This document shows, piece by piece, positions 2 to 41,650 of a stretch of DNA of 64,000 bases (its first letter is position 1; each line of letters opens with the position of its first letter). The position numbers and the translations under genes are program-made. The stretch is from a virus. Lineage: Duplodnaviria; Heunggongvirae; Uroviricota; Caudoviricetes. The stretch lies in IMG/VR virus record IMGVR_UViG_3300045988_157791; one strand, written 5' to 3'. Below the pieces are notes generated by a model that was not told where the DNA came from, ran no database searches, and saw nothing but the letters and a program-made list of their open reading frames with translations.

Positions 2-625
2 TCCATCGTTGAAGCTGCTTCCATTGTATCCGATGAACTGCGCGAAAAAGCAGATCTGGCAACTCAAACATATAACGAACATTATAAAAATGGTACGCAC
101 ACTAAAGCAGACAAAGCAAATATGCAAGCTGCGACCACTAAACTTGCTTACTTCATCAACAACGTTGTAAACGCTGTAGAAGAAGAAAAATTATGCTCTG
201 TTTTCTACTATGCGATCAAAGCAAGTAAACAAGCGCCAGAAGCATTTTTCCGTGATGCAATGGCTAACAGTTATTCTCTGGAAAAACTGGTTTATCTGGT
301 CAAATCAATTAAATCTGGTAAATGCGTTTATTCCGTCGCTGATATGTCAGGATCTCGTGTATTCGCTTTAATCGATATGATTAACGACGAGATCGACACG
401 TTCACCAATGGCGCTGTTTTCGATTTAATGAATGAAGCAAAAAAAGCGTGCGAAATTAAATTGGACGCTGGCTATACTCAAGCCAACCAGTTGATCAATC
501 TTTGCGAACGTCTCGGACTTGTTGAAAAAGTCAAAGGAGCTGGGAGCGCGAAAGCTGGTACTCAGCAATATCGCTTCATTAAAAATGATTTCTATAACTA
601 TCTGGCTGATGCTTTTAAAGCGTAA
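2..625 (+). CDS. hypothetical protein, 5' end outside window
   Basis: Frame is open from position 2 to the stop at 623-625; the ATG at 122 has no convincing SD; followed by a hairpin terminator. Confidence 0.45.
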   Translation, partial: SIVEAASIVSDELREKADLATQTYNEHYKNGTHTKADKANMQAATTKLAYFINNVVNAVEEEKLCSVFYYAIKASKQAPEAFFRDAMANSYSLEKLVYLVKSIKSGKCVYSVADMSGSRVFALIDMINDEIDTFTNGAVFDLMNEAKKACEIKLDAGYTQANQLINLCERLGLVEKVKGAGSAKAGTQQYRFIKNDFYNYLADAFKA

Positions 626-637
626 TTAATGGAATCT

Positions 638-660
638 GGCGCCCACTATGGGCGCTTTTA
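638..660 (+). terminator. rho-independent terminator
   Basis: Hairpin GGCGCCCA-cta-TGGGCGC followed by a T-run. Confidence 0.7.
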
Positions 661-673
661 AGGAGTTTTAATC

Positions 674-904
674 ATGTATGTTCTTATCGCTGGCGTTAAC
701 GTGCGCAATGAATATTTTGTTAATCGCATCGCTGGGATCGCTGGCTACGCTGGGCGCTCAGTCGAGTTTATCGATGAAACAACGCGTAAAATTGACTTAT
801 TGAACGACCAGGAGCGAAAAAAAGCTGAGGTGAACGACGCTGATATATTTTTAATGTTAAAAGCGTTTGTAGAAATGGGATTTGAAATCAGTTTACATAA
901 ATAA
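674..904 (+). CDS. hypothetical protein (76 aa)
   Basis: ATG preceded by AAGGAG SD; followed by terminator. Confidence 0.55.
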   Translation: MYVLIAGVNVRNEYFVNRIAGIAGYAGRSVEFIDETTRKIDLLNDQERKKAEVNDADIFLMLKAFVEMGFEISLHK

Positions 905-909
905 AATCG

Positions 910-935
910 AGCGCCCACTATGGGCGCTTTTTTCG
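910..935 (+). terminator. rho-independent terminator (same stem as 638-660)
   Basis: Hairpin GCGCCCActaTGGGCGC plus T6. Confidence 0.7.
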
Positions 936-954
936 TTTCCAATACTTCCACAAT

Positions 955-980
955 AACGCGCCATTGATGGCGCGTTTTTT
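955..980 (+). terminator. rho-independent terminator
   Basis: Hairpin CGCGCCAttgaTGGCGCG plus T6. Confidence 0.65.
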
Positions 981-1399
981 ATTGTCTTTGACTCACTCCA
1001 ACAACATAAAAATAAGCGCCAAAATAACGCCATAAACGCGCTTTTATATCCTTGCCAGTACATACCCATTACTTAACACATTAACGCGCTTAAAATGCGT
1101 TATATTGCGCTATAACGTATGGCTAATCATTGGCTTTTAGTCTTGCTATGTGATCCGCGTTTATTTGTCGGCGCGGATCGGCATTTTGTGTTGTTTTGTA
1201 TCCGCTCGCATATGATTGCCACGTTGGGCAACGTGTACGCGCTTACAGTGATTTACCCACGGATTCACATAATCACATAGCGAAAGCTATCTGGATGGCC
1301 CAGGGGCTGAAACCCCCACCAGCGATACCCCAGCGCCGCTACGCAATTTCTGGCGCGATTCCGGGTTTCTCCCGCTCAGTTTTCTACATAAAGGCGAAT

Positions 1400-1480
1400 G
1401 CAGCCGTTTCCCGAAAAAATCCTGGCCGTTTCCCGTCGGCTCATGAATGCGTTCCTCGCCGTTTCTGAAAATTTCCCTGC
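1400..1480. repeat. iteron-like direct repeats (GCCGTTTCCCG-like, 3 copies)
   Basis: Copies at about 1403, 1425 and 1457; same unit as the 5000-5140 array. Confidence 0.5.
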
Positions 1481-1528
1481 GGCAGCTGGTGGCTATAGAG
1501 AAAGGGCCGTTTCTGGCCCTCTTCTCAG

Positions 1529-2011
1529 TTACACGCCATCAAGGATGTGGATGCGGTTGCTTGCGTATACATTCAGCATAAAGTTAGCGCAAAACAGTTT
1601 CCATGTGTCAACGCCAGCGGTATACGTAATGTTTTTGCATTTAATTGCATTGTTGGCGATCCGCATCCCCTGCGATACTGCTTCATCGTCGGAAAATTTG
1701 AACGACGATTGAGTTTTAATCCAGACAGAAATCTGCGTAGCGAACTCAATCAGCTTGGACTGGCAGAATCGCCCGGAGCGCACCGGAAAGACGAACGTTC
1801 CGAATCCAGAATTTACCACATATGCTTTCTCAAATACCCGCGAGTAACGACGATTGCCAATGATGTTGCGTACAATAATGCATTTTTCTTGTTCTGACAG
1901 TTCTACCGTCTCATTGTGACGCCAGGCACCAAGTACTCGTTTTTCAATGTCAGAGAACGTTACAGCGATATTGCCATGTGCGGGTGCGTTTACAGTAGCG
2001 ATAAAATTCAT
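1529..2011 (-). CDS. hypothetical protein (160 aa)
   Basis: ORF with AAGGAA SD; conserved promoter/leader motif immediately upstream. Confidence 0.55.
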   Translation of the reverse strand: MNFIATVNAPAHGNIAVTFSDIEKRVLGAWRHNETVELSEQEKCIIVRNIIGNRRYSRVFEKAYVVNSGFGTFVFPVRSGRFCQSKLIEFATQISVWIKTQSSFKFSDDEAVSQGMRIANNAIKCKNITYTAGVDTWKLFCANFMLNVYASNRIHILDGV

Positions 2012-2022
2012 GATTAATTCCT

Positions 2023-2076
2023 TATCGTAAATAACAAATTGTTTTCTTGTTGGCGTTAATTATCGTTGTACGAATA
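2023..2076 (-). promoter_or_regulatory. conserved early-type promoter/leader motif (copy a)
   Basis: Minus-strand reading TTGACG-N15/17-GATAAT followed by a near-palindromic AACAAnTTGTT core just 5' of the RBS. Confidence 0.55.
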
Positions 2077-2215
2077 AGGCGTCAAAGTGGAAAGTTGCGG
2101 TAGCCGGACGGGAACAGGTGGGTTTGTCGGTTGCCTGGAGGTAAGAGGTTGGTGTTTTTAGCCTGAGGGAAACAGGATGGTCATTTAAGGCCACCAGCAT
2201 TGGTGGCCTTAGTCT

Positions 2216-2497
2216 TTAGTGGAGCAGACCGATGTCGATGGTATCCCCTGAATCACCCACACGGATCATCAGCATGGCGAAGGCGTTTAGTGGATAACTG
2301 GCGTGCCATTCAGGGAAGCGGTCATCTCGCATGAAGTCGGCAATGTCGTAAACGCAGCCCTCAAAGTGGAAGAATCGCGTGCTTACCTGCTCGTCATATT
2401 CCACATGATCCATTTCTTGCTGTTCTGTTTCCGGCAAGTCCAGCCATGATTCAAGGAATACATTTTGTGCTTTAGGGGTAATGGTGAAATCAGTCAT
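2216..2497 (-). CDS. hypothetical protein (93 aa)
   Basis: Start re-placed to the ATG with GAGGA SD (MTDFTITPK...), because the motif at 2515-2572 lies inside the longer track ORF. Confidence 0.5.
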   Translation of the reverse strand: MTDFTITPKAQNVFLESWLDLPETEQQEMDHVEYDEQVSTRFFHFEGCVYDIADFMRDDRFPEWHASYPLNAFAMLMIRVGDSGDTIDIGLLH

Positions 2498-2514
2498 GAG
2501 CATATCCTCACTGC

Positions 2515-2572
2515 GTAAACATGTTGTTTTCTTGTTGGTGTAATTATCGCAGTGTAGATAAGGCATAAAAGA
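2515..2572 (-). promoter_or_regulatory. conserved promoter/leader motif (copy b)
   Basis: AAACATGTTGTTTTCTTGTTGGTGTAATTATCGC, same architecture as the other copies. Confidence 0.55.
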
Positions 2573-2832
2573 AGTTAATACAGGCTGAATACACAAGAAA
2601 GGTTCTGGAAGTTGATAACCAGGTTTCAAACTAACCTTCGGTTATTAAAAGTCATTTAAGGCCACCAATGCTGGTGGCCTTAATAATTATCGCCCGATTA
2701 CGCTAAGGATCTTTTCCTCAACTGATTTGTTGTTGCGACTAAACTGCCTTGCGTATCTGATGACAGAAGAGGCGTTTTGCTTTCTGACCATCTCGGCTCT
2801 TTCCTTCAGGCGTTTCTTGAAATCGCCCATAT

Positions 2833-3207
2833 TTACCACCAGGCACGGAACGTCAGTCTATTATTGTGAAAGTCGTGGTTCTTAATCAGATCTTCCACAA
2901 GCTCTTTCAACTCCCCCACATCATGCCAGTAACCTTCATCGTACTCCTGACTGCCGAAGAAAAAACCTTCCCGGGTAGGCAAGTACTCTTCGCAATTACT
3001 TTCGTTTATGTGCATCAAATGAGCCTTCAGAAAACAAATGTCATTCATCGTTAATTCTAAAAGCTCACAATTTTCGACTTCACCTACGTTGCGCTCCATC
3101 CACCCAACGAGCGCATTGAACTTACGGAAGTAAGCAACCTGCTTTCTGGATGCCTCGTTATTCAGATCGTTTTTAGGCTGCGTCTCGATATAGATATCAA
3201 GTCCCAT
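2833..3207 (-). CDS. hypothetical protein (124 aa)
   Basis: ATG with AAGGAAA SD (MGLDIYIE...). Confidence 0.5.
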   Translation of the reverse strand: MGLDIYIETQPKNDLNNEASRKQVAYFRKFNALVGWMERNVGEVENCELLELTMNDICFLKAHLMHINESNCEEYLPTREGFFFGSQEYDEGYWHDVGELKELVEDLIKNHDFHNNRLTFRAWW

Positions 3208-3324
3208 GATGGTTTCCTTATTAAGTTGCTTCAGTGAAATCATTTTCACAAATCAGATAAGGCAGAAAACAGATTGTTATCGGGCATAAGAAAATGGCGC
3301 GGTTTACGCGCCATTCAAAGAGGA

Positions 3325-3720
3325 TTAAGCGAATACGCTTTCAGGGATTAAGGTGTCAGCAGGAATGCCGGAGGTAATGCGCAGGCCGTACTGACCAATC
3401 CAGGTAGTGTTGGTATTCAGGCTGGAGGCGAATACGGTGTTAACCATATTCATCATGGTTTCAAACACCTCTTCATCAACCTGGCGGAAGTAGTTCTCGA
3501 TTTTCAGCAGCAGCGGGTCAGTTGCATCGAAAATAGACTGGTATTGAGTCGCGTACTCGCCGCCGGAGGCATCACCTTTACGCACGATCGTACTGGCCTG
3601 GACTTCGGCACCAGTTTCGGTGTTGTACGTAACAACGGTGATTTTTGCCACATTCTTACCTTCGGCGGTTTCAGAGGCATAGTAAACATCAACTGTCAGT
3701 TTTTCGCGTTTAACGGTCAT
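3325..3720 (-). CDS. hypothetical protein (131 aa)
   Basis: ATG with GGAGAG SD (MTVKREKL...). Confidence 0.5.
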   Translation of the reverse strand: MTVKREKLTVDVYYASETAEGKNVAKITVVTYNTETGAEVQASTIVRKGDASGGEYATQYQSIFDATDPLLLKIENYFRQVDEEVFETMMNMVNTVFASSLNTNTTWIGQYGLRITSGIPADTLIPESVFA

Positions 3721-3782
3721 TTCACTCTCCGTAGTGTATTGGTTATTTTTATATTCTATGATCGTAAGTATGTACTTACAAT

Positions 3783-3812
3783 ACAAAAAAGCCCCGTAAG
3801 GATGGCGGGGCT
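3783..3812 (-). terminator. rho-independent terminator
   Basis: Hairpin GCCCCGtaaggatggCGGGGC followed by a U-run on the minus strand. Confidence 0.6.
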
Positions 3813-3846
3813 GTCGTACGGTCGACTAATTACCACTTGCACATTA

Positions 3847-4158
3847 TCAGGCTATTGCCATCACTGATGCTCTCTGAATCTCTTGCTGGGCCACGCGGTT
3901 AACTTCCATCAAAGCCAGTTCGAGCTGATGTTCCGGCCACATTCTTTGAAATGCCACCCAGCCTTTTCCACGCTGGCGACGAACATTCATTACATAACGA
4001 GTAAAGGTGTTTTTATCGAAAGACACCGCTGTTTCACGGAATAGACGAATAGAGGTTCCATTGGCAACGATATCCAGCAAAGTTAATTGAGCAACCAGTG
4101 CAGGCTTCTCTTTTCTCTTCTGGTCTTTGTCCAGACCAAGAACCAATGATTTTTTCAT
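3847..4158 (-). CDS. hypothetical protein (103 aa)
   Basis: Track ORF begins at a TTG; ATG with GGAG SD chosen (MKKSLVLG...). Confidence 0.45.
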   Translation of the reverse strand: MKKSLVLGLDKDQKRKEKPALVAQLTLLDIVANGTSIRLFRETAVSFDKNTFTRYVMNVRRQRGKGWVAFQRMWPEHQLELALMEVNRVAQQEIQRASVMAIA

Positions 4159-4165
4159 CACAACT

Positions 4166-4215
4166 CCGTAAACAACTTGTTTTCTCAATGGCGTAAATAA
4201 TACCAGTAAGAAAAC
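4166..4215 (-). promoter_or_regulatory. conserved promoter/leader motif (copy c, variant)
   Basis: AAACAACTTGTTTTCTCAATGG. Confidence 0.45.
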
Positions 4216-4311
4216 GGCTACAAAGCATATTGATCAGGTGCATGAGCGATATGCAGGTTCTTCCCTGCGGCTATAGAGAAATTAAGCCAGCAAAGCTGGC
4301 TTTGGTTGGGG

Positions 4312-4641
4312 TTACTCGAATACTTCAAGAAACTCCTGAACGTCCCAATGCTGGACGAGGTGAAGATAGACCTTAGAAATCACGTCATTTTCGCTATCGC
4401 ATGTGAAGTAGTACTTCTGGCTGCGGTTGTATGTGTCCACACAAAATTCGCTCATATCCATAAAGTCAGCATCTTCACCCATGTCGCAAATCATCAAAGC
4501 AGGTGCGTCATCACGAGTCATCAGCTCAAGCACCCACCGCGAATTGATCAGAGTGGAAGACCAACCTTCTAACTCATAAAACTGATCAAACTCTTTTTGA
4601 GTTAATTTCTTGATTTGGTTGATGTCGATATTTGCAAACAT
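4312..4641 (-). CDS. hypothetical protein (109 aa)
   Basis: ATG start (MFANIDINQ...) directly downstream of motif copy d. Confidence 0.5.
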   Translation of the reverse strand: MFANIDINQIKKLTQKEFDQFYELEGWSSTLINSRWVLELMTRDDAPALMICDMGEDADFMDMSEFCVDTYNRSQKYYFTCDSENDVISKVYLHLVQHWDVQEFLEVFE

Positions 4642-4651
4642 AAAGCAACCC

Positions 4652-4708
4652 TTAAACAACATGTTTTCTTATTGGTGTTATTATCGCAATAACGCATAGG
4701 CGAAAAAG
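4652..4708 (-). promoter_or_regulatory. conserved promoter/leader motif (copy d)
   Basis: AAACAACATGTTTTCTTATTGGTGTTATTATCGC...GGCGAAAAAGG. Confidence 0.55.
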
Positions 4709-4999
4709 GATTTTATTCCGGTGAATGTGGTTTTGGCAGTGAGTTTTCAGGTTCAGTACCGAGTACACTTTTTACATTATTCTGATTTAGTAGCCGAAGG
4801 TGGCTGGTGGGCAGAATAATCATCTCCCCGAAAACCTACTGAAATCGATTGTGACCCGTTGGCTGTCTGGCACAATTACGCTGTAGCTGGGCATTCAGAG
4901 GGAATCCAGCGGTAAGTAAGTTCGCCTGCACGTGAGCGCCTCTCTTCTTCCCGCACATTACAGGTGGGTAGCCGCAACTCTCCCTCTCGCTATACCGGT

Positions 5000-5140
5000 A
5001 CGCCGCCGTTCCTGAACCGGCATCGAGCCTTTTCCCGAAATCCACACAGGCAACTCGACCGTTTCCCTGAAAACCTCCAGCCGTTCCCCGAAGGCAACCC
5101 AGCCGTTTCTGTAGCGGGATGCAGCCTTTTCCCTGTATGG
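5000..5140. repeat. iteron-like array, six GCCGTT(T)CCC-GAA units at about 22-bp spacing
   Basis: Units at about 5004, 5027, 5059, 5080, 5102 and 5124; no credible ORF. Confidence 0.55.
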
Positions 5141-5289
5141 ACCGAAGGCTGACCGTAGGGGTGTTACGGGGGATAAAATCAGGAGTTGAATAAATACGAA
5201 AAAGGAGGCGACACCCCTCCTTCCCTCCCAACTTATACATACCTGTCTTGTTCGCTATACATGTTGTGTTTTCTTCGTGTTTTATCTGT

Positions 5290-6110
5290 TTCAACCTCTC
5301 TATAGGCGTTAATGCTCACTCCTTCCAGAACGTTCTATACGGCGACTATTTCTGTTGGTGAATTGGGTGTGTTGTTTTCCCTGTCGGTGTATGTGGTTTC
5401 GTTCGTTTTGCGATGGTTCTTCTATGGGGTGTTCTCGTCGTTTTGGTGATTGTTCTTCTCCGTGTATGGAGTAATGGCAGGTGGGCGATTCCTTTCGTTA
5501 TTGTGTTTGAGTTGTTTGTCTGGAGTGCGTGAAGGGCTTTTGTAGTTATTCGTGTATTGGGTAATGGCGTTTCCCGTGATTGTTATGTTTCGTGTCTTTT
5601 GGGATTGAGAGAAACCTTGCGGTTACAGGCTTCGTTGGGGTTTCAGTGATTCTGATGTTTCTTCGCTGTTTGGGTAATGGCGTGTCGTGGGTATCGCGCG
5701 TATGAATGTTTTCGGATTGCCTGTGAAAGTTAGGTTGGTTGTCCGGTAGCCTGGGAAGAAGAGGTGGGTCTTTTCGGTAGCCTGCCATAAAGAGGTTGGT
5801 TGTTTTTGGTAATGGCATATGTGTTATTTAGTTGTTTTGTTATACCTGAAAATAAGTTGTTTATATGGTTATGTAACGCAACGGGAGCGATTTTGAGCGT
5901 GTGTTTTTGTTGGTAGTGTGTTGGGTCGTCTGTGGTGAAAATTGGACGCTGTGGCGCTGTCTGCTGCGTAGAGTTACGGGTATAAGAAGTGATGTGTGAA
6001 AACGTCAATTTTTTAGACCAAATCGGGTGAAAGCGTTGACGTTTCGTTGATCTGTTATTTAGTTGTTTTCTTATTTGTATAAACAACCATAACCTATTGA
6101 TATTTAATGA
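5290..6110. repeat. strongly GT-skewed non-coding region with degenerate ~100-bp repeats (GGGTAATGGCG cores)
   Basis: Top strand depleted in A and C; GGGTAATGGCG-like cores near 5476, 5562, 5668 and 5805; track ORFs here are low-complexity. Confidence 0.5.
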
Positions 6111-6205
6111 TGTGATTGCTGGTATGGGAGGGGAGTAGTGGCGATCAACGGATTCTTATAGAAAAGAATCAAATTGTGACCGCCATTATCAATGAGTTGC
6201 AACCG

Positions 6206-6775
6206 TTAGTTGTTCAGATAAACATTTGGAACACGGACGTAGAAGTTCCTGTCGCCGGTAAGTTCCAGAGTAATGTTAATGTCATTACCATTGTCTAGTG
6301 TAGCCGTTGCTCTATAGAACTTATCCGTCACCTTGTCCTCTATTGTCACCTTCATACATTTTGGTGCAGTCGAACCGTTATTCTCTTTCAGAATAGTTGT
6401 CACGAGAGGGCAGGCTGCTTCTTCAAGAGCAACCTCGTCCTTGTGTGGGATGCCGATGAAGATAACCCAAGCCAGCGACGCAACGATTATGATAAATGGC
6501 ACTCTGCTGCCTTTTGTAATAGTCGCGCGCTTCCAGAGATAGACAGGCAGGAGGAATACCCCCCATAGAATTGAAGGTGGTTCACAGCCAGACTCCGATA
6601 GAGCCATTCTGTCAGCTACTAACAAACCGATGGTAGTTACACCCCCAATTATAATAGCGTAATTGGTATACTCTTCCGGCGATACTCCAAAGAAGAAAGG
6701 CATGAACGCTAGAATCCACGCATAAATGTTATTCAGAGGTTTTGTTTGTTGGTTCTGGGTTTCCATCACATCCAT
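6206..6775 (-). CDS. membrane protein, about four predicted N-terminal TM helices (189 aa)
   Basis: Long hydrophobic N-terminal segments followed by a soluble C-terminal domain. Confidence 0.5.
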   Translation of the reverse strand: MDVMETQNQQTKPLNNIYAWILAFMPFFFGVSPEEYTNYAIIIGGVTTIGLLVADRMALSESGCEPPSILWGVFLLPVYLWKRATITKGSRVPFIIIVASLAWVIFIGIPHKDEVALEEAACPLVTTILKENNGSTAPKCMKVTIEDKVTDKFYRATATLDNGNDINITLELTGDRNFYVRVPNVYLNN

Positions 6776-6927
6776 TCCATCACATAAAAATCGCGTTTAT
6801 ATATTATCAATTTTCTCACTTGTATAACCTAAATACGCATCCGTTTATCAATCCACCTTCCACAAACATCAGCTTTAGCTATGAAAAATAACAATCTCAA
6901 AGTGAAAACCATTATCATAGGAAACGA

Positions 6928-7113
6928 TTAGATGAGATGGTCTAATTCATCATCTATCATTGCTTTAACACTTGAGTCATTAACCCCGTATTGATTTATG
7001 AACCGTTTCAGCTCCGGTGAAAACTGAAGGTAGATATCGTGAGCGTTTTTCACTGTAGGTTCAACGCCACGCATTTCAAGCGCCTTTAGTAGATATGAGT
7101 CTTCTTTAAGCAT
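6928..7113 (-). CDS. hypothetical protein (61 aa)
   Basis: ORF only. Confidence 0.3.
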   Translation of the reverse strand: MLKEDSYLLKALEMRGVEPTVKNAHDIYLQFSPELKRFINQYGVNDSSVKAMIDDELDHLI

Positions 7114-7149
7114 AAATTCTCCGTTGTCTAGTATGAAGCGATTGCCGGA

Positions 7150-7449
7150 TTACCATTGCCAGCACTCTAGCCCTTCAACGACCGGTGCACCACAATCAAA
7201 ATGTACAGAGTCAAAGCCTACATCAAGTACTTTCTGAATGTTCGCAATCGCGCCCTCGGATATACCATATCGACGCAACTCATCTTTCCAGTCATCGTCC
7301 TGTAACCCGGCGTGGACAATGCAACCGTACTCAATTTGTGAAACCCAATCCAGCTCATTGCTTGCGATCATGAATCGGCGAGCATCTTCCTCTGATGTAT
7401 GAGATGAGCTGATCAATGCCACCTGGTAGGCTTGGGTAATGTTCAACAT
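7150..7449 (-). CDS. hypothetical protein (99 aa)
   Basis: ATG with GGAG SD; motif copy e upstream. Confidence 0.45.
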   Translation of the reverse strand: MLNITQAYQVALISSSHTSEEDARRFMIASNELDWVSQIEYGCIVHAGLQDDDWKDELRRYGISEGAIANIQKVLDVGFDSVHFDCGAPVVEGLECWQW

Positions 7450-7460
7450 TTCAACCACTC

Positions 7461-7525
7461 CAAAACAAGTTGTTTTCTTATGTGGTTTATTATCTCCATC
7501 AACAAAAGGCAGAAAACAAATTGTT
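7461..7525 (-). promoter_or_regulatory. conserved promoter/leader motif (copy e, with a second partial core)
   Basis: AAACAAGTTGTTTTCTTATGTGG plus downstream AAAACAAATTGTTTT. Confidence 0.5.
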
Positions 7526-7565
7526 TTAGGTACTGTGTAAATCAGAAGGGATTGTGTCTATATGA

Positions 7566-7592
7566 AAATGCCCGGCGTGTTGCCGGGCATTG
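7566..7592 (-). terminator. metG rho-independent terminator
   Basis: Hairpin GCCCGGCgtgttGCCGGGC with a U-run on the minus strand, just 3' of the metG stop. Confidence 0.7.
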
Positions 7593-7610
7593 CGAAGAGA
7601 GGTTGTTTAA

Positions 7611-9644
7611 TTACTTAACCTGGTGGCCAGGTTTAGCACCAGCATCCGGGCTTAACAGGAAGATATCTTTCCCGCCGGGGCCAGCAGCCATCACCATGCC
7701 TTCAGAGATACCGAAGCGCATTTTACGTGGTGCCAGGTTAGCCACCATAATGGTGTGACGACCAATCAGTGCCTGCGGATCCGGGTAGGCAGAACGAATA
7801 CCGGAGAAGACATTGCGTTTTTCACCGCCGAGATCCAGTGTCAGGCGCAGCAGTTTGTCAGAACCTTCAACAAACTCTGCGTTTTCGATCAGCGCTACGC
7901 GCAGGTCAACTTTGGCGAAGTCGTCAAAGGTGATGGTTTCCTGAATCGGATCATCTGCCAGTGGGCCAGTAACTGGCGCGGCAGCTGCTTTCACTTCTTC
8001 TTTAGACGCTTCCACCAGTGCTTCAACCTGCTTCATATCGATGCGGTTATACAGTGCCTTGAACGGATTTACTTTATGGCCCAGCAGCGGTTGCTGGATA
8101 CCATCCCAGGTCAGTTCTGTATTCAGGAATGCTTCTGCACGTTCAGTCAGTTTCGGCAGTACCGGCTTCAGGTACGTCATCAGCACGCGGAACAGGTTAA
8201 TGCCCATAGAGCAAATCGCCTGCAGATCGGCATCGCGTCCTTCCTGCTTCGCCACCACCCACGGAGCCTGTTCATCGACATAGCGGTTAGCCAGGTCAGC
8301 CAGTGCCATGATTTCACGGATAGCTTTACCAAATTCGCGGCTTTCCCACGCTTCACCAATCACTTCAGCGGCATCAGTGAAGGTTTTGTACAACTGCGGG
8401 TCAGCCAGCTCGCTTGCCAGCACACCGTCAAAACGCTTATTGATAAAGCCAGCGTTACGGGACGCCAGGTTAACCACTTTGTTCACGATATCGGCATTCA
8501 CACGCTGAACGAAATCCTCCAGGTTGAGATCGATATCATCAATGCGCGAAGAGAGTTTCGCAGTGTAGTAGTAACGCAGGCTGTCAGCGTCAAAATGATT
8601 CAGCCAGGTGCTGGCTTTAATAAAGGTGCCGCGAGACTTGGACATCTTCGCGCCGTTCACCGTCACATAGCCATGAACAAACAGGTTGGTCGGCTTGCGG
8701 AAGTTGCTGCCTTCCAGCATGGCAGGCCAGAACAGGCTGTGGAAGTAAACGATATCTTTACCGATGAAGTGGTACAGCTCGGCGGTGGAGTCTTTCTTCC
8801 AGTATTCATCGAAGCTTACGCTGTCGCCGCGCTTGTCGCACAGATTCTTGAAAGAACCCATGTAGCCAATCGGTGCGTCCAGCCAGACGTAGAAATATTT
8901 GCCCGGCGCGTTCGGAATTTCAAAACCGAAGTAAGGGGCGTCGCGGGAGATATCCCACTGTTGCAGGCCAGATTCAAACCACTCCTGCATTTTATTTGCC
9001 ACCTGCTCCTGCAACGCACCGCTGCGGGTCCATGCCTGCAACATTTCGCTGAAAGAGGGCAGATCAAAGAAGAAGTGTTCAGAATCACGCATTACCGGCG
9101 TAGCACCAGAAACCACCGATTTCGGTTCAATCAGTTCAGTCGGGCTGTAGGTCGCGCCGCAGACTTCACAGTTATCGCCGTATTGATCTGGCGCTTTACA
9201 TTTCGGGCAGGTGCCTTTCACAAAACGGTCCGGCAGGAACATGCCTTTTTCCGGATCGTACAGCTGAGAGATGGTGCGGTTTTTAATAAAACCGTTTTCT
9301 TTCAGGCGAGAGTAGATAAGTTCTGACAACTGGCGGTTCTCTTCGCTGTGCGTCGAGTGATAGTTGTCATAGCTGATGTTAAAGCCTGCGAAATCAGTCT
9401 GATGTTCCTGACTCATTTCGCCAATCATCTGCTCCGGTGTGATACCAAGCTGCTGAGCTTTAAGCATGATCGGCGTGCCGTGGGCATCGTCGGCGCAGAT
9501 GAAGTTGACCTCGTGGCCGCGCATTCGCTGGTAACGGACCCAGACATCAGCCTGGATGTGCTCCAGCATATGGCCGAGGTGGATTGAGCCGTTAGCGTAC
9601 GGCAGCGCGCACGTCACCAGAATTTTCTTCGCGACTTGGGTCAT
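7611..9644 (-). CDS. metG: methionine--tRNA ligase (677 aa)
   Basis: Start at [26 protein letters not shown] (HIGH-type motif), KMSKS present, zinc knuckles CPKC/CEVC, C-terminal tRNA-binding domain; I recognise it as enterobacterial MetG. Confidence 0.95.
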
Positions 9645-9801
9645 AGTAGGCATTACTTCTTTGTAGTGAAAAGGGGCTTGATAGTAACAAAATGGCCTTA
9701 TGTCTGCCATGTGATAACAGCATTTCTCATAAATGATTAAATGTCGTAGCTGGAGTACACTACAAGGCGACAATTGCGCAAATTAAAATAAAGGAGACGG
9801 G
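9645..9801. promoter_or_regulatory. divergent metG / apbC promoter region
   Basis: 157-bp AT-rich interval between divergent starts. Confidence 0.5.
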
Positions 9802-10902
9802 ATGAGCGAGTCCAAATCGCCGGATGCCCTGAGAGCAATGGTAGCCGGTACGCTGGCTAATTTTCAGCACCCAACCCTGAAACACAACCTGACTACGCTT
9901 AAAGCGTTACACCATGTTGCGTTGATGGATGACACACTGCATGTCGAACTAATCATGCCTTTCGTGTGGAATAAGCCTTTTGAAGACCTGAAAGAGCAAT
10001 GTAGTGGTGATCTGCTCCGTATCACTGGCGCAAAGGCTATTGACTGGAAGCTGTCGTACAACATTGCCACGCTTAAGCGCGTCAAAAACCAACCAGGCAT
10101 TAATGGCGTTAAGAACATTATCGCCGTCAGCTCAGGCAAGGGCGGCGTAGGTAAATCCTCCACGGCGGTAAATCTGGCACTGGCGTTGGCTGCTGAAGGT
10201 GCGAAAGTTGGTATTTTGGATGCCGATATCTATGGTCCATCAATTCCAACCATGCTGGGCGCGGAAAACCAACGTCCAACCTCACCGGACGGTACTCACA
10301 TGGCACCTATCATGTCTCATGGCCTGGCAACCAACTCTATTGGTTATCTGGTCACCGACGACAATGCAATGGTGTGGCGTGGACCGATGGCCAGCAAGGC
10401 GCTGATGCAGATGTTGCAGGAAACTCTATGGCCTGATCTGGACTATCTCGTTCTCGATATGCCGCCGGGCACTGGTGATATTCAGTTGACGCTGGCGCAG
10501 AACATTCCTGTAACTGGTGCGGTTGTGGTAACTACGCCGCAAGACATCGCGCTGATCGATGCGAAGAAAGGCATTGTGATGTTCGAAAAAGTCGAAGTGC
10601 CGGTACTGGGTATCGTCGAAAACATGAGTGTGCATATTTGCAGTAACTGCGGTCATCACGAGCCAATTTTTGGCACCGGTGGCGCACAGAAACTGGCCGA
10701 GAAATACAACACGCAGTTGTTAGGCCAAATGCCACTTCATATCTCTCTTCGTGAAGATCTGGATAACGGAACACCAACCGTTATTAGTCGTCCAGATAGC
10801 GAATTTACGGCTATTTATCGTGACCTCGCAGATCGCGTTGCTGCCCAAATGTATTGGCAAGGTGAAGTAATACCTGGCGAAATCGCATTCCGCGCAGTGT
10901 GA
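9802..10902 (+). CDS. apbC: Fe-S cluster carrier ATPase Mrp/ApbC (366 aa)
   Basis: P-loop SSGKGGVGKSS and CSNCGHH motif; Mrp/NBP35 family; divergent from metG as I recall for enterobacterial chromosomes. Confidence 0.9.
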   Translation: MSESKSPDALRAMVAGTLANFQHPTLKHNLTTLKALHHVALMDDTLHVELIMPFVWNKPFEDLKEQCSGDLLRITGAKAIDWKLSYNIATLKRVKNQPGINGVKNIIAVSSGKGGVGKSSTAVNLALALAAEGAKVGILDADIYGPSIPTMLGAENQRPTSPDGTHMAPIMSHGLATNSIGYLVTDDNAMVWRGPMASKALMQMLQETLWPDLDYLVLDMPPGTGDIQLTLAQNIPVTGAVVVTTPQDIALIDAKKGIVMFEKVEVPVLGIVENMSVHICSNCGHHEPIFGTGGAQKLAEKYNTQLLGQMPLHISLREDLDNGTPTVISRPDSEFTAIYRDLADRVAAQMYWQGEVIPGEIAFRAV

Positions 10903-10905
10903 TAA

Positions 10906-10930
10906 AAAGGCGGTGCAATGCACCGCCTAA
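10906..10930. terminator. hairpin terminator after apbC
   Basis: AAAAAGGCGGTGCAatgCACCGCCtaatc. Confidence 0.6.
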
Positions 10931-10939
10931 TCAGTTCTC

Positions 10940-11329
10940 CTACATCACGGGACAATCATCAAACTCGCCACTTCTTGCGTCGTTGATAATGTGAGTGATC
11001 ACACCAAACACGGCATTGCTGCCCGTGCATCCATCGTCATCCTTTGGCAATGCTTCCTTCTTACCGGTTCTTAAATCCTCCAGATGCTGACGTGGGTACT
11101 TCCGGTATCTTTTTACGCGATATTCCCCATCCAGAGCGCATACAAGCAGAGAACCATCAACTGGGGTAAGTGAGGAATCAACCACCAGCAATGCACCCTG
11201 TAATATTCCCTCACGATGATGACTATCAGCTGCCCGCATGAAGTAGGTCGCTGAAGGATGTCTGATTAGTTGCTGATCAAGAGAAATACGGCTCTCTGCA
11301 TAATCCGCCGCAGGAGAAGGGAAGCCCAT
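10940..11329 (-). CDS. UmuD-prime-like S24 peptidase-domain protein, natively truncated (129 aa)
   Basis: Begins M-GFPSPAADY, the residues just after the UmuD Cys24-Gly25 self-cleavage site; Ser (ADSH) and Lys (RVKR) dyad positions retained; stop upstream in frame; no umuC nearby. Confidence 0.75.
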   Translation of the reverse strand: MGFPSPAADYAESRISLDQQLIRHPSATYFMRAADSHHREGILQGALLVVDSSLTPVDGSLLVCALDGEYRVKRYRKYPRQHLEDLRTGKKEALPKDDDGCTGSNAVFGVITHIINDARSGEFDDCPVM

Positions 11330-29957: not shown

Positions 29958-32273
29958 TCAGATTTTGCAGGCTCCGTCGCACTCATCTTCTGGCTCGACG
30001 GCTACAGCTTGCGTCAGTGGATTCTGCGGTTCGTCGTCATCACGCTTTCCTGCCCCATCTCTGGTGTTGTGGTAGTAAAGCGTTTTAACTCCCATCTTGT
30101 AGGCGAGAAGCAAATCTGACAGTAGCGTCATCATTGGGACTTTATCGCCTTCAAAGCGAGAAGGGTCATAGTTGGTATTGGCTGAAATAGCCTGGTCAAA
30201 GAACTTCTGGATGATCGCCACCTTTGTCAGATAGCCGCGGTTGTCCGGCATATCCCACAGGTATTCATACTGTTCCTTCAGTTTTTCAAACTCAGGCACG
30301 ACCATCTTAACGATGCCGTCCTTAGAAGATTTCACCGACACCGGTCCACGAGGCGGTTCGATGCCGTTGGTGGAATTAGTGATCTGGCTGGAAGTCTCGC
30401 ATGGCATTTGTGCCGTCAGTGTGGAGTTGCGAAGTCCGTATTTTGCAATACGTTCACGCAGTTCTTCCCACGGCATCTTTAACTCAAAGTTGGTTTCGCC
30501 ACTTTCGTCTAATGAAGAACGGTAATGGTCGATCGGCAACTGACCAATTGCGTACTTGGTCTGCTCAAACCAGTCACACTCACCTTTTGCTTCAGCAAGT
30601 CGGCAGCTGGCATCAAGAAGGTAATACTGGATAGCTTCGAACGTTTCATGCACCAGTTTATTGCCAGCGGTATCAGAATAACGAACGCCATTCTTTGCCA
30701 GGTAATAAGCAAAGTTGGTTACACCAATTCCCAAGCTACGACGAGCTTTGGCAGGCACTTCGGCTGCCTCCATCGGATAGTCTTGATAATCCAGTAACGA
30801 ATCCAGTGCAGCAACGGCATAGAACGCCACCTCTTTAAGAGACTCCAGTGAACGGATGGCTCCGAGGTTAAAAGCGGATAAAGTGCATAGCGCGATCTCA
30901 CCGTTCGGGTCGTCGGTAAATGCCAGTGGACGAGTGGGTAGAGTGATCTCCATGCACAGGTTTGACTGGCGAACAGGTGCAAGAGCAGGAATGAAAGCGC
31001 CATGCTCGTTAATATGATCGACGTTCGCAATATAAATTCGGCCCGTGGACGCTCGTTCCTGCATCAGAGATGAGAACAGCTCAATGGCAGGTACTGACTT
31101 CTTGCGAATTGAATCATCGGCTTCGTATTTATGGTACAGCTTTTCAAACAGCTCCTGGTCTGTGAAGAAGGCTTCGTACATATCAGGCACATCATGCGGG
31201 CTGAACAGAGTGATGTTCTCGCTTCTGACGAGTCGACGGTACATTAGACGGTTACTCATGACGCCGTAATCAAGATGGCGAACGCGGTTTTCATCAATAC
31301 CACGGTTATTTTTCACCACCAGCAGACTTTCAACTTCAAGATGCCAGATCGGGTAAAACGCTGTTGCTGCGCCACCACGAACACCACCTTGCGAACAAGA
31401 TTTAACAGCCGTCTGGAAATGCTTCAGGAATGGAATAACTCCAGTATGGGTGGCTTCACCATTGCGGATCTCGCTGCCCAGCGCACGGATACGGCCAAAA
31501 CCAATACCAATTCCAGCACGACGTGAAACGTAGTCGATAATTGCGGCTGAAGCTGCACTAATCCCTTTCAGACTATCGCCAGACTCAATCAGCACACAAC
31601 TGGAGAACTGACGGGTTGGAGTACGGACGCCGGCCATGATTGGTGTGGGCAGAGACAGTTTGAACGTACTTGTAACGTCATAGAAACCTTTGACCATCTC
31701 CATACGTGTTTTGCCAGCGCAGTCGTCTTCCCAATTCTGGAACAGACACATGCCTACCAGCATATAGATATGTTGCGGCCCCTCATGAATCTCACCAGTA
31801 ACACGGTTTTGAACGAGGTATTTGCTTTGCAACTGCACCGTAGCTGCATAGCCAAAAAGATCGTCACGTTTCGGCTTAATGTAATTGCCGAGTTCTTCGA
31901 TCTCTTCAAACGAATAATGTGTCAGCAAATCCTTGTCATAAACGCCCTTGTTAACGTTCTTGACAATGTGTTGGTAGAAGTTCGGATAGTCGTAACGACC
32001 GAAGGCATCTTTGCGGATTTTAAAAATGTTCAGGCGGGCAGCCACCTGTGAGTAATTTGGTGCTTCTGGTGAGATCAAATCAGCGGCAGATTTAACCAAA
32101 GCCTCATGCAACTGGCTGGTGGTAATCCCATCAAAAATGCTGGCCGCAGCTCCCATTGCTACAGCGGATGCGCTTACACCACGAATGCCTTCTACGCCAT
32201 ACATTACGACGCGGTTGTATTTTTCTTCGGATAACGGCTCTGTTTGGCCGTTACGTTTTACGATGCTTATCAT
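29958..32273 (-). CDS. nrdA: ribonucleotide reductase class Ia alpha subunit
   Basis: Collinear with E. coli NrdA as I recall it (QNRVTGEI, PTPIM.GVRTPTRQFSSCVLIE, NLC.EI.LPT, C-terminal CxxC tail). Confidence 0.92.
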   Translation of the reverse strand: MISIVKRNGQTEPLSEEKYNRVVMYGVEGIRGVSASAVAMGAAASIFDGITTSQLHEALVKSAADLISPEAPNYSQVAARLNIFKIRKDAFGRYDYPNFYQHIVKNVNKGVYDKDLLTHYSFEEIEELGNYIKPKRDDLFGYAATVQLQSKYLVQNRVTGEIHEGPQHIYMLVGMCLFQNWEDDCAGKTRMEMVKGFYDVTSTFKLSLPTPIMAGVRTPTRQFSSCVLIESGDSLKGISAASAAIIDYVSRRAGIGIGFGRIRALGSEIRNGEATHTGVIPFLKHFQTAVKSCSQGGVRGGAATAFYPIWHLEVESLLVVKNNRGIDENRVRHLDYGVMSNRLMYRRLVRSENITLFSPHDVPDMYEAFFTDQELFEKLYHKYEADDSIRKKSVPAIELFSSLMQERASTGRIYIANVDHINEHGAFIPALAPVRQSNLCMEITLPTRPLAFTDDPNGEIALCTLSAFNLGAIRSLESLKEVAFYAVAALDSLLDYQDYPMEAAEVPAKARRSLGIGVTNFAYYLAKNGVRYSDTAGNKLVHETFEAIQYYLLDASCRLAEAKGECDWFEQTKYAIGQLPIDHYRSSLDESGETNFELKMPWEELRERIAKYGLRNSTLTAQMPCETSSQITNSTNGIEPPRGPVSVKSSKDGIVKMVVPEFEKLKEQYEYLWDMPDNRGYLTKVAIIQKFFDQAISANTNYDPSRFEGDKVPMMTLLSDLLLAYKMGVKTLYYHNTRDGAGKRDDDEPQNPLTQAVAVEPEDECDGACKI

Positions 32274-32346
32274 GTATCACCAAATAAAGAGGGCCACTAA
32301 ATATAGTGGCCCATGTTAATAGATAAGCACTTACCTATCAATGAAA

Positions 32347-32916
32347 TCAAATGAGAGACTTAAGAACATCGCGCACCTGGCGGAACTGATCTGTTTGCAT
32401 ACCGGTATGGATGGCAGCCACCGCATCAGCCAAATGTTCGTTTTTGTTCACGAGAACATCCTGTCCAGATTGCTTACGACGCAGCCACGGTGCTTTAGGG
32501 TGTTTTTTCGTAGCCCACTGGATAATCTCTTCTTTCGATGTAGTAAGTTTATTGCCGACAAAATGCTTGATTTCGTTTGGAGTAACCTGGATCAATGGCT
32601 TATCCACACACGCAAGTACACCGATACAAATACCGTAAGACGTCTGCGAACGAGAGTTTTGGCTCCCAACCGGTAGCTCACAAAAAACCATATTTGCCTT
32701 ATCAATGATTGGCTTCGCAACACGCCATATTTCACTGGCGCGGCGCAGATCGTCACTGTTCACACGAACGGTCTTTTTGTTACTCCCCGCTTTAGTCTCA
32801 ACAAGAGTAAGGCCGTGAATCTCAAGTTCGTCCGTCTCAAGGTCTAAAGTGCCCACAGCAAGCCCAAAGTTGCTCATTGAGGGATCAACACCAACTACGC
32901 TGATTTTTTTACTCAT
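32347..32916 (-). CDS. putative RuvC-like Holliday junction resolvase
   Basis: N-terminal VVGVDPSMSNFG resembles the RuvC-fold first catalytic Asp region. Confidence 0.4.
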   Translation of the reverse strand: MSKKISVVGVDPSMSNFGLAVGTLDLETDELEIHGLTLVETKAGSNKKTVRVNSDDLRRASEIWRVAKPIIDKANMVFCELPVGSQNSRSQTSYGICIGVLACVDKPLIQVTPNEIKHFVGNKLTTSKEEIIQWATKKHPKAPWLRRKQSGQDVLVNKNEHLADAVAAIHTGMQTDQFRQVRDVLKSLI

Positions 32917-37864: not shown

Positions 37865-38505
37865 TACTTATCCCAGTTATCCACTGGATAGATCCAAATA
37901 AGAGATCCCAAGTAAGATCAAATAGAAGATCCAAAGAGATCCCCGATCGCCTCTAGCCGTTGCGGTTACTGGTCTGAAAGGGTGTTGCCATCCACTATGG
38001 AGAGCAAAGAAACCTCTGTAGAGAGCTGAATAACCGCTATGAAGAGTAAAACAACCACTCTGGAGAGCTGTATATATCCACTGTAGAGAGTAGAGCACAT
38101 TGTCTTTTATGGATAACTTAATGACTTAATTCTTCATTAACATACTGATATACATAGATATATTTTAAACTCTACTCTTAGTCATGATTCTTATGTCCTT
38201 AAATATCCACAGAAGAGTAGAGTTACCTGTTCTTGAAATCCTCTGATTTTTATCCACAGGCCCGATCCAGTAATTCAGATCACAAAGAGAACCAAAGAGA
38301 CCCATAAAGACCCAATAAGATCCCCGCCCACCTCAAACCGTTGTGCCATCTGCCTTCAGACATGATCGATATCCACTATAGAGAGCGAATAATCCACTAT
38401 AGGGAGCAAAGCAACCACTATAGAGAGGAGAAAAACCACTATAGACGGTAGGATAACCGCTGTGATGAGTGCTACTATCCACTGTAATCAGCAAAGGCCA
38501 CCAAA
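37865..38505. repeat. plasmid-type replication origin: DnaA boxes, GATC cluster, AT-rich tract and about 11 iterons upstream of repA
   Basis: TTATCCACA at 38250-38262 and a near-copy at 37876; GATC clusters at 37900-37950 and 38277-38330; iterons (A/T)(T/A)CCACT(A/G)TAGAGAG at 37990-38090 and 38374-38490. Confidence 0.8.
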
Positions 38506-38532
38506 GCCGTCGAATAACAAGAGACATTTGGA

Positions 38533-39588
38533 ATGAGCGAAAACGGCAATAAAAACATAGCGATCGTTGAAGCATTTTCAGAAACAGATAAAAAGACAGG
38601 CGAAGTTGTTACGTTGGTTCCTAACACTAATAACACTGTTCAGCCTGTTGCTTTGATGCGTCTGGGCCTCTTCGTTCCGACGCTGAAATCGACATCCAGA
38701 GGAAGAAAGGGGCAAATGGTCTCTATGGATGCCTCTGCTGAACTCAAACAGCTGTCTCTGGCAAAAGCCGAAGGGTACGAAGACATAAGGATCTCTGGCC
38801 TTCGGCTTGATATGGATAACGACTTTAAAACGTGGGTGGGAATAATCCACGCGTTTGCCAAACACAAGGTCGTTGGCGATACTGTCACGTTGCCGTTCGT
38901 TGAGTTTGTAAGGCTGTGTGGCATTCCGACCGCCAGGTCATCAGCGAAGTTACGCAAACGCCTGGACAGTTCGCTAAGCCGTATTGCCACAAATACCATC
39001 TCGTTCCGTAGCAAAGGCTCTGATGAGTTTTACGTAACGCATCTTGTGCAAACGGCAAAATATAGTGTCAAGCACGATACGGTCGAACTGAAAGCAGATC
39101 CCAAGATTTTCGAACTCTACCAGTTCGACAAAAAGGTTCTTCTGCAACTCCGGGCTATAAACGAACTCTCAAGAAAAGAATCCGCTCAGGCGCTTTATAC
39201 TTTTATTGAAAGTTTGCCGCCTGATCCGGCACCAATATCACTAGCCCGTTTACGCGCCAGACTTAATCTGACAAGTCGCACTATTACTCAGAATGCGACG
39301 GTAAGAAAGGCTATGGAACAGCTGCGAGAGATAGGATATCTCGATTACACGGAAGTTAAGCGCGGAAACTCGGTCTACTTCGTCATCCACTATAGGCGGC
39401 CAAAGTTACGCCAGGCACAAATATCAACAAAAATCGATAATGATGAGACGGAATATAGCCTCCCAGATGAGAATCAAGATGACATTATCGACGTTGTGCC
39501 TGACGAAAAAGAAGGCAAAATGGTCATGTTGAGTAAAGAAGAACTGGCGCTTCTCGAAGAGTTGCGCAAGGCAAAGACTCGCAAATAG
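38533..39588 (+). CDS. repA: RepFIB-type replication initiator RepA
   Basis: Matches RepFIB RepA as I recall it ([60 protein letters not shown]...[43 protein letters not shown]); iterons on both sides. Confidence 0.85.
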
Positions 39589-39589
39589 C

Positions 39590-40075
39590 CCAACCACTGT
39601 AGTTAGTAGTAAGGCTCACTATCCACTGTAGTGAGCCTTACTTATATCTGTAATTCGCTATCCACTATAGTGAGTATCGTTATCTGTTGATAACCACTGT
39701 AGGCAGTAGAATGCAAATACTGAATTAAATGTTAGTGATCACTAACACTGATGAAACAAGGGCTGCGAGGTTAGTGGTCACTGGGTATCTTGGAAAATTT
39801 ACTGTCTATAGTGGTTGTTGTCGCCCTCATCTTTGAGCGTATCCACTGTGGCGAGTGGATATCCACTGAAAACAGCAAAGGCTTACTCACCATAGTGGAT
39901 ACCCGCTGGACATCTCACTCCAATACTCACCATAGTGGTTGTTTGATGCGAATGAAAGGCTGTCTACTCGCTACAGTGGTTAGCAGATATGTAGGAAGGT
40001 TTTGTTACTGACTACAGTGGATAATGAGCTGGATACGAATGCGGTGAGTAGTCTGCTCACCGCAGTGGTTGGTGC
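39590..40075. repeat. downstream iteron array in both orientations
   Basis: At least 12 copies of (T)ATCCACTGTAG / CTACAGTGGTT-like units. Confidence 0.8.
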
Positions 40076-41597: not shown

Positions 41598-41612
41598 GTT
41601 TTCTTATCCTTT

Positions 41613-41650
41613 TAAACAAATTGTTTTCTTAATAAGATAATTGCGATAAA
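41613..41650 (-). promoter_or_regulatory. conserved promoter/leader motif (copy i)
   Basis: TTTTAAACAAATTGTTTTCTTAATAAGATAATTGCGATAA. Confidence 0.5.

Follow-up and report, generated by a model that had tools for sequence, protein, structure and literature searches.

Phages and plasmids are known in which the origin comprises two separated iteron sets, as with P4 ori/crr and SPP1 oriL/oriR, and the lytic origins of lambda and P1 need repressor-controlled transcription. At the RNA level, Rho loads on C-rich, G-poor, unstructured and untranslated RNA of at least ~80 nt. Here, we compare with these systems a non-coding region at positions 4700–6195 of a 64,000-nt stretch of viral DNA (IMG/VR record IMGVR_UViG_3300045988_157791; the whole stretch is called the window, and its coordinates are used throughout unless pLF82 is named). 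Because its 4700–6110 segment shares 98% identity with the Escherichia coli LF82 plasmid pLF82, also deposited as phage Cyrano, and ~72% with Salmonella phage SSU5, the window is assigned to a phage-plasmid of the pLF82 ("Cyrano") type within the SSU5 supergroup; up to position 6110, the pLF82 position is the window position plus 69631. The element encodes DnaE, a DnaB-like helicase, a DnaG-like primase, a ligase and nucleotide-metabolism genes. Since it has a polymerase, helicase and primase of its own, a phage-specific origin is expected, and we know of no recognised origin for these replication proteins. We tentatively propose that 4700–6195 is a cis-acting module of the lytic phase, in which a regulated promoter would be followed by a Rho-loading leader and then by iterons that are possibly a phage origin or initiator-loading site. 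Our literature search found no paper describing this region, nor an SSU5-type lytic origin or early control region. As far as we searched, the module is therefore undescribed; its types of parts are familiar, and what is unfamiliar is their combination and the conserved 700-nt skew.

Conservation and non-coding status

The region is widespread. A sensitive search of PLSDB matched it in 838 of 72,556 plasmid records, 251 of which cover at least 80% of it, and a flanking protein used as bait recovered 59 IMG/VR loci. All loci examined among the latter carry, in the gene sense, an A+C-rich tract of 600–850 nt and then a GGGAA(A)CGG array, an order present even where the bait protein is only 50% identical. 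Relatives were found in E. coli, Salmonella, Citrobacter, Enterobacter, Klebsiella, Kluyvera and Buttiauxella, and scanning IMG/VR and GTDB genomes for the motifs turned up this phage-plasmid family again, together with chance hits, and no new context except Yersinia pestis pMT1, Kluyvera and Buttiauxella. Codon and identity comparisons were made with nine diverged relatives from Escherichia, Salmonella, Citrobacter, Enterobacter and Klebsiella, and the architecture was aligned in 14 diverse representatives with 46–94% identity to the window. Conservation of the region is on a par with that of the flanking genes (64–74% identity versus 51–72%). The order, orientation and spacing of its parts are preserved across genera, and the architecture persists down to 46% identity. 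In the alignment of the 14 representatives similarity ends abruptly at ~6195, with unrelated accessory genes to the right. The conserved element thus extends further than the 4700–6110 bounds given in the preliminary description of this DNA, reaching 6195 on the right and having partner elements at 1361–1510 and 2095–2182.

The preliminary description had found no credible open reading frame here and had taken the listed frames for artefacts of composition, and both statements hold. Substitutions over 4720–6200 have no 3-nt periodicity in any sub-region or relative (chi-square p 0.18–1.0), whereas the control genes 3325–3786 and 3847–4188 are biased to one codon position in five of six comparisons (p 1e-4 to 1e-7; the sixth has p = 0.06). 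Stop-free frames shift in position and phase between relatives, their boundaries are not conserved, and indels are not multiples of three. RefSeq/PGAP annotates nothing at pLF82 74272–75828, and nearly all matching plasmid records listed have no annotated feature under the match. Conserved and yet devoid of codon periodicity, 4700–6195 is therefore non-coding DNA under purifying selection.

That protein genes nevertheless hide in the region, either as the two "hypothetical proteins" CYRAN_103 (corresponding to 5730–6086) and CYRAN_104 of the Cyrano record or as short peptides read on the top strand from the ATG of GTAATGGC, is scarcely credible. Minus-strand open frames of 90–152 codons do exist and two of them are annotated in that record, but such frames stay open because T and G, which stop codons require, are scarce on this strand; moreover, their boundaries differ in every relative, with the missing codon periodicity, the indel lengths and the empty PGAP annotation also speaking against genes. 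In LF82 transcriptomes, both in vitro and in macrophages, CYRAN_103 stays at the detection floor and CYRAN_104 low even when the downstream CYRAN_105 rises (PMC9928086, S1 table), so the region is silent in lysogens and the next gene has its own promoter.

Among clinical E. coli, Klebsiella, Salmonella and Enterobacter, phage-plasmids of the SSU5 type occur commonly. No other conserved non-coding element of the genome is as large as this 1.5-kb module, which lies exactly at the insertion hotspot for accessory cargo and is an obvious candidate site for the switch from plasmid to lytic replication; the region is also usable as a specific sequence marker for the family.

The strand-skewed tract

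The most unusual part of the region is a tract at approximately 5250–5960, whose minus (gene-sense) strand has A 0.41, C 0.30, G 0.14 and T 0.15. The top strand had been described as almost devoid of A and C. The skew is real, and the wording too strong: over 5250–5830 the top strand has A 0.14, C 0.15, G 0.30 and T 0.41, so that A+C, at 29%, are depleted only. Measured in 200-nt windows, G+T averages 0.50 over the 64 kb (sd 0.047) and reaches 0.68–0.78 at 5251–5850 (maximum 0.78), the sole stretch above 0.68; the whole 108-kb pLF82 contains no second such tract. All 14 relatives share the gene-sense composition (A 0.35–0.41, C 0.26–0.32, G 0.14–0.20, T 0.13–0.16) and a tract length of 700–753 nt, and the commonest class of substitution in the tract is A<->C (28%, versus 14% in neighbouring DNA). 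The minus-strand C/G ratio varies from 1.3 to 2.2 across relatives, and the excess of A over U (2.3–3.0) is the steadiest feature. A conserved amino/keto skew of 700 nt, unique in its genome, is unusual for bacterial or phage DNA.

In our view the skew makes most sense on the minus strand, where the tract would form an untranslated, A+C-rich leader placed 3' of a conserved promoter-like element. The minus-strand tract has 2–6 AUG codons and few Shine-Dalgarno-like words, and its RNA folds weakly (-126 kcal/mol for 801 nt). An excess of RNA structure was considered and rejected, the folding energies lying within or near the shuffled range (z -1.77 for the minus and +0.82 for the plus strand), and the Rfam 15 covariance models gave no match to 4700–6200 at E-values up to 1. 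By these sequence features the tract has what is expected of a Rho-loading (rut) site, namely at least 80 nt of weakly folded RNA with C over G and no coding signal, 3' of a promoter-like element. The complementary G/U-rich RNA would not be a Rho substrate, so any effect of Rho would depend on orientation.

The degenerate repeats reported earlier for this tract are present as GGGTAATGGCG-type cores at 5469, 5559, 5672 and 5807, with irregular spacing and no strong period. On the minus strand they correspond to four GCCATTAC(C/T)C motifs (top-strand GTAATGGC at 5471, 5561, 5674 and 5809), and three to six GCCATTAC(C)C motifs occur in each relative, the most distant included. Periodicity analysis inside the tract gave no strong period and no triplet (ARN) signal.

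Two other explanations were considered and discarded. The gene 2011–1529 holds the same position in the partner module, and the tract could have been its decayed copy; tblastn and sensitive blastn found that the two intervals share repeat arrays only. Mimicry of the fliC 5'-untranslated region gave a local alignment score of 18, against 18.5 +/- 2.3 for shuffles. The fliC leader was compared because a gene of the FljA family sits just left of the window, FljA being a translational repressor that binds fliC mRNA. This gene (pLF82 68797–69318, ~0.3 kb left of the window start; Pfam PF03614, E 1e-80) is present in all relatives; its product is annotated as "transcriptional regulator" and has an additional, sub-threshold Hfq-like match. 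Within the tract, 5256–5308 is a lineage-specific insertion of ~40 nt, a degenerate copy of a promoter cassette (TATACATGTTGTGTTTTCTT...) that is absent from the Salmonella, Klebsiella and Enterobacter relatives.

Predicted promoter/operator hub

The right third of the region (5830–6190), which the preliminary description had missed, is predicted to be a conserved promoter/operator hub. Its central part is a promoter-like element on the minus strand (6014–5980), composed of an A-tract (6014–6009), TTGACG (6008–6003), a 17-nt spacer and TTATAC (5985–5980). All 14 relatives preserve both hexamers and the 17-nt distance between them, with 8–10 of the spacer positions variable; this is the usual signature of a sigma-70-type promoter, and from it we infer promoter activity. 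The -10 box is weak (TTATAC, or TATACC at 18 nt), and it is because of this non-canonical box that the consensus scan did not call a promoter. If the promoter is active, transcription would start near 5973 and run leftward, and the tract would be transcribed as A+C-rich RNA. No comparably conserved promoter was found in the opposite direction, where TTGAAT (5186–5191) has no -10 partner in any lineage.

Several conserved blocks surround this element. Operator-like palindromes of the AAACAAnnTTGTTT type (5831–5866) form the most AT-rich conserved spot of the region. Upstream on the minus strand lie the direct repeats GTCAACG / ATCAACG, 11 nt apart (6030–6054), an inverted GTCAACG-type copy of which forms the -35 box at 6003–6008. 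Next comes a copy of the operator/5'-untranslated region motif AATAAGAAAACAACTAAATA (6056–6075, minus strand), common to the repeated promoter cassettes of the genome. The most distant relatives have the complete palindrome AAAACAACTTGTTT here, and the AAGAAAACAAC motif, of which a copy lies at 6075–6056, occurs in the 5' leaders of many genes of the element. The last block before the variable cargo, at 6139–6190, reads TTGATAATGGCGGTCAC..TTTCTATAAGA..CGTTGATCGCCAC on the minus strand and is more than 90% conserved. At the other end of the tract, the minus strand carries a polypurine run, GGGAGGGAAGGAGGGG, with a hairpin (5199–5229); the hairpin (5225->5199) is terminator-like, with a U-run, in the lineage of the window only. 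It is followed by a moderately AT-rich conserved block (5163–5198, minus-strand sequence CGTATTTATTCAA...ATCCCCCGTAAC) that adjoins the iterons.

The tract might be no more than an insulator or attenuator, that is, a polar Rho-dependent terminator shielding the conserved early-gene island 4641–1529 from the hub and the cargo, with the iterons and 31-bp repeats as sites for transcription regulators and no origin at all. We regard this as possible but somewhat doubtful. The composition fits a rut site, no classical origin feature accompanies the iterons, the cargo genes read towards the tract in most relatives, and the gene upstream of 2182–2095 is likewise followed by a short A+C-rich stretch consisting of the 30-bp repeats. 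LF82 RNA-seq values fall from ~57 for CYRAN_102 to the floor at CYRAN_103 (PMC9928086), but this fall occurs before the start of the tract. Klebsiella elements with cargo reading in the opposite direction, away from the tract, conserve it just as well, the conserved promoter-like element points straight into it, and 720 nt of conserved length far exceed what a rut site needs.

The transcript might instead act in trans, as a structure-free A/C-rich non-coding RNA of ~770 nt, made on induction, that titrates, for example, Rho, Hfq, ribosomal protein S1 or a phage RNA-binding protein. The promoter-like element directly upstream, the terminator-like hairpin at the end of the tract in the window's lineage, the lack of an Rfam family match and the conservation of length, composition and GCCAUUACCC motifs would all suit such a sponge. 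It is, however, quite unlikely in our view, given that the terminator is not conserved in relatives, that no triplet (ARN) periodicity exists and that neither lysogens nor macrophage time-courses contain detectable amounts of the RNA (PMC9928086, S1 table). A bolder version, to which we give similarly little credence, would make the ~720-nt tract the gene for a new kind of phage RNA, controlled by a repressor and sequestering at induction a host machine for single-stranded RNA, most plausibly Rho, and the G-cluster/iteron block a lytic origin opened by the same transcription. If this were true, a Rho-soaking RNA would lift the Rho-dependent silencing of the phage-plasmid and of other horizontally acquired genes. 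The skew itself yields a hypothesis that can be tested directly, either a polar leader on which Rho loads or a sponge RNA.

Iteron arrays and companion repeats

To the left of the tract, six (G/A)CC(G/T)TT(T/C)C(C/T) units of the GCCGTTTCCC type form array B (5005–5145, top strand; units 5005–5133). An array of six units at ~22-bp intervals had been noticed before, and it is confirmed here with starts at 5005, 5027, 5058, 5080, 5102 and 5124, that is, spacings of 22/31/22/22/22. The repeat structure survives statistical self-comparison: in the autocorrelation of 4990–5150, the peaks at lags 22 and 44 stand out from shuffles (z 5.7 and 4.1, respectively). In 12 of the 14 diverse relatives the lag-22 peak ranks first or second (z 4.2–5.7), and the two most distant ones retain the motif with spacings of 11, 17, 28 and 34 bp. 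With its helical phasing and with sequence, position and orientation conserved across genera, array B looks like a protein-binding site, in agreement with one of the functions first suggested for it.

Three further units had been reported at 1400–1480, and they are confirmed at 1403, 1425 and 1458. Together with weaker copies at ~1361 and ~1506, they form array A (1361–1510, top strand), which has the motif and orientation of array B, 3.6 kb away, and is located downstream of the terminator of gene 2011–1529, at the genome's sole point of convergent transcription. In the 108-kb pLF82 genome the motif forms just these two arrays, both on the top strand. Each array is accompanied at ~600–700 bp by a set of 30-bp repeats, in the window as in Salmonella, Klebsiella and SSU5. 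In module A this set consists of three tandem 30-bp CGGTAGCC...GAGGTGGGT repeats (2095–2182, top strand), separated from the array by a 160-codon orphan gene. In module B two tandem 31-bp repeats, CGGTAGCCTG-N7-GAGGTGGGT (5741–5801, top strand), are nearly invariant in relatives and are separated from the array by the skewed tract. The 31-bp repeats were also found in Kluyvera, Buttiauxella and Y. pestis pMT1.

In a boundary or looping model, the two arrays and their 30-bp repeats, placed on either side of the 3.6-kb island that holds six small orphan genes, would be bound by a protein of the phage that bridges or silences DNA. One of the two ParB-N-domain proteins could be this protein, and its binding would keep the island silent during lysogeny or turn it on as a block. 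The existence of exactly two arrays in the same orientation flanking the island, their constant association with a repeat set and the location of array A at the point of convergence agree with this explanation. It remains unlikely to us, because no binding protein can be assigned to the arrays, array A alone is kept in pMT1 and the strand skew is left unexplained.

The Y. pestis plasmid is informative in another respect. On a pMT1 contig (NCTC5923, 1036–3595) module A is kept at 75% identity to window 59–2570, iterons and repeats included, whereas the hub, the skewed tract and array B, hence the whole of module B, are absent. As pMT1 is a stably maintained plasmid, neither plasmid replication nor partition requires module B; this speaks against a centromere and against an origin for the plasmid mode, while a role in the lytic phase is compatible with this distribution. 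The partition site once suggested for array B thus finds little support. Two clusters of phased direct repeats do bring to mind certain centromeres (R1 parC, the dispersed N15 sites), but a parS-like array of the plasmid prophage is very unlikely here because the ParA-like ATPase gene (pLF82 31744–32412) lies ~40 kb away, with a small partner and an upstream region of its own, and because pMT1 lacks array B and tract. The arrays, in addition, have no palindromes.

A packaging (pac) initiation site had also been put forward. Repeat-rich non-coding DNA with a conserved Chi nearby would suit it, and the Chi noted at 4803–4810 is indeed an exact match, conserved in relatives within GGCTGGTGGGCAG (4802–4814, top strand). 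We nevertheless regard a pac site as highly improbable, even more so than a centromere, because the terminase genes are at pLF82 59.7–61.6 kb, ~13 kb away; furthermore, Chi has no orientation bias in the genome (12 versus 13 per strand). With 15 Chi in the window, the presence of one is no signal by itself. Six of these fall within the first 5 kb (including 1316-, 1485+, 2191-, 2670+ and 4803+), and the enrichment at 1316–4810, around the small-gene island, has no orientation bias.

Finally, two known elements were considered for the repeats and rejected. Array B could have been a set of plasmid RepA iterons, but the motifs are unrelated (ATCCACTATAGAGAG versus GCCGTTTCCC). RfaH ops elements (GGCGGTAGnnTG) within the 31-bp repeats are at chance level and in the wrong orientation, and we treat the similarity as a coincidence: the window holds three ops core motifs versus 0.98 expected, and at least three occur in 7 of 100 shuffles.

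Neighbouring genes and repeated elements

Directly to the right of the conserved region, 6195–11329 is a cargo hotspot that in the window contains genes for a full methionyl-tRNA synthetase (7611–9773, minus strand; Pfam 1e-165), an Mrp/ApbC-like ATPase (9802–10902, plus strand) and an S24 peptidase (10940–11329, minus strand). The cargo of relatives consists of DUF262 and type I restriction-modification genes in Klebsiella and elsewhere of a GIY-YIG nuclease, IS elements or an autotransporter.

On the left, a promoter/5'-untranslated region cassette (4653–4721, minus strand), with the extended -10 TGCGATAAT and AAGAAAACA, serves the next gene, 4641–4312. Copies of this 55–69-nt cassette (TGCGATAAT plus the AAGAAAACAAnnTTGTTT palindrome) are found at 2033–2087, 2516–2584, 4171–4225, 4653–4721 and 7462–7530, with further copies at ~18923, 19652 and 41597–41622; they precede many minus-strand genes and, in pLF82, also the ParA-like gene. 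The repetition of the cassette looks like a regulon with a common operator or leader. Two consecutive genes are each followed by a perfect 27-nt hairpin, TTAAGGCCACCAGCATTGGTGGCCTTA (2185–2211 and 2657–2683); each copy contains a Chi octamer, the two facing opposite ways, and a U-tract is lacking in both.

The plasmid replicon is located at 37989–40070, where sets of ~21-bp ATCCACTATAGAGAG iterons lie to either side of a Rep_3-family RepA gene (38533–39588, plus strand); part of the downstream set is inverted.

Proposed function

We tentatively favour, as stated above, a lytic-phase control module. The promoter at 6014–5980 (minus strand), lying among operator-like palindromes and GTCAACG repeats, would be regulated and would fire leftwards, producing an A+C-rich, G/U-poor transcript of ~720 nt that could be neither folded nor translated and would thus be a textbook substrate for Rho loading. 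The tract would then act as a long, orientation-specific attenuator or insulator, so that transcription coming from the hub or the cargo would not reach the downstream DNA unless termination is overcome. The leader would end at the polypurine/G-cluster block and at the six 22-bp-phased iterons, presumably bound by a phage protein. We suggest that this array and its twin 3.6 kb away would most likely be a lytic origin or an initiator-loading site, activated by transcription arriving from the hub.

A lytic origin at this region is possible. Array B has the helically phased tandem repeats of 17–22 bp that characterise iteron origins, and the sole Rep gene of the element (Rep_3) has different iterons. 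Of AT-rich DNA directly beside array B there is only a block of ~35 bp (5163–5198) at 65–69% AT.

Several observations weigh against the module as we propose it. Regarding the promoter, the -10 box is poor and lacks the conserved final T; regarding the end of the leader, the hairpin terminator at 5225–5199 is not conserved. Rho needs far less than 720 nt, and Rho loading accounts neither for the conserved length nor for the GCCATTACCC, CGGTAGCC and GCCATTAC(C)C motifs, nor for an excess of A over U as the steadiest feature. A Rho-sensitive leader placed before a transcription-activated origin is awkward without an antiterminator, and none was found. As to the origin, the AT-richest conserved DNA (5825–5866 and 6035–6108) is ~700 bp from the iterons, and no initiator gene was recognised near the arrays, whose flanking genes match only PHROGs of unknown function; searches of Pfam, NCBIfam and PDB sequences with the small flanking proteins gave nothing functionally informative. 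Inspection by eye for DnaA boxes, made without a pattern search, gave one weak AAATCCACA (5039–5047) that is unconserved in the aligned relatives, and the cumulative GC and TA skews of the whole genome are monotonic, with no origin signal.

Comparison with known systems

Compared with the RepFIB-type RepA iterons of the same element (37989–40070), array B is similar in being a phased array with a period of ~21–22 bp in non-coding DNA. It differs in that those iterons have the ATCCACTATAGAGAG motif and flank repA, from which array B is 33 kb away. The likeness of the 31-bp repeats to RfaH ops is limited to CGGTAGCCTG, which matches ops positions 3–8 and 11–12, whereas G1 and G2 are mismatched in the best copies, which are not on the strand of the promoter-like element but on the other one.

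The tract can be compared with described rut regions, such as lambda tR1 and those in the long leaders of mgtA and corA. Like them, its minus-strand RNA has C over G, is unstructured, lies 3' of a promoter-like element and lacks start codons and Shine-Dalgarno sites. Unlike them, it is ~10 times the usual length, its excess of A over U is steadier than its excess of C, and it has conserved motifs and a conserved length.

Iteron origins (P4 ori/crr, SPP1 oriL/oriR, lambda ori, RK2 oriV) offer a further comparison, for a candidate origin at the iterons. Array B departs from them in having no adjacent strong AT-rich element, no DnaA or IHF boxes and no neighbouring initiator gene, and in being preceded by a 720-nt skewed tract that has no counterpart in those systems. 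It resembles them in its phased direct repeats, five or six in number and ~22 bp long, in their conserved orientation, in being accompanied, within a few kb, by another array of this motif and in belonging to a phage that itself supplies helicase, primase and polymerase. A putative regulated promoter also lies upstream of array B, which recalls lambda ori and P1 oriL with their activation by transcription.

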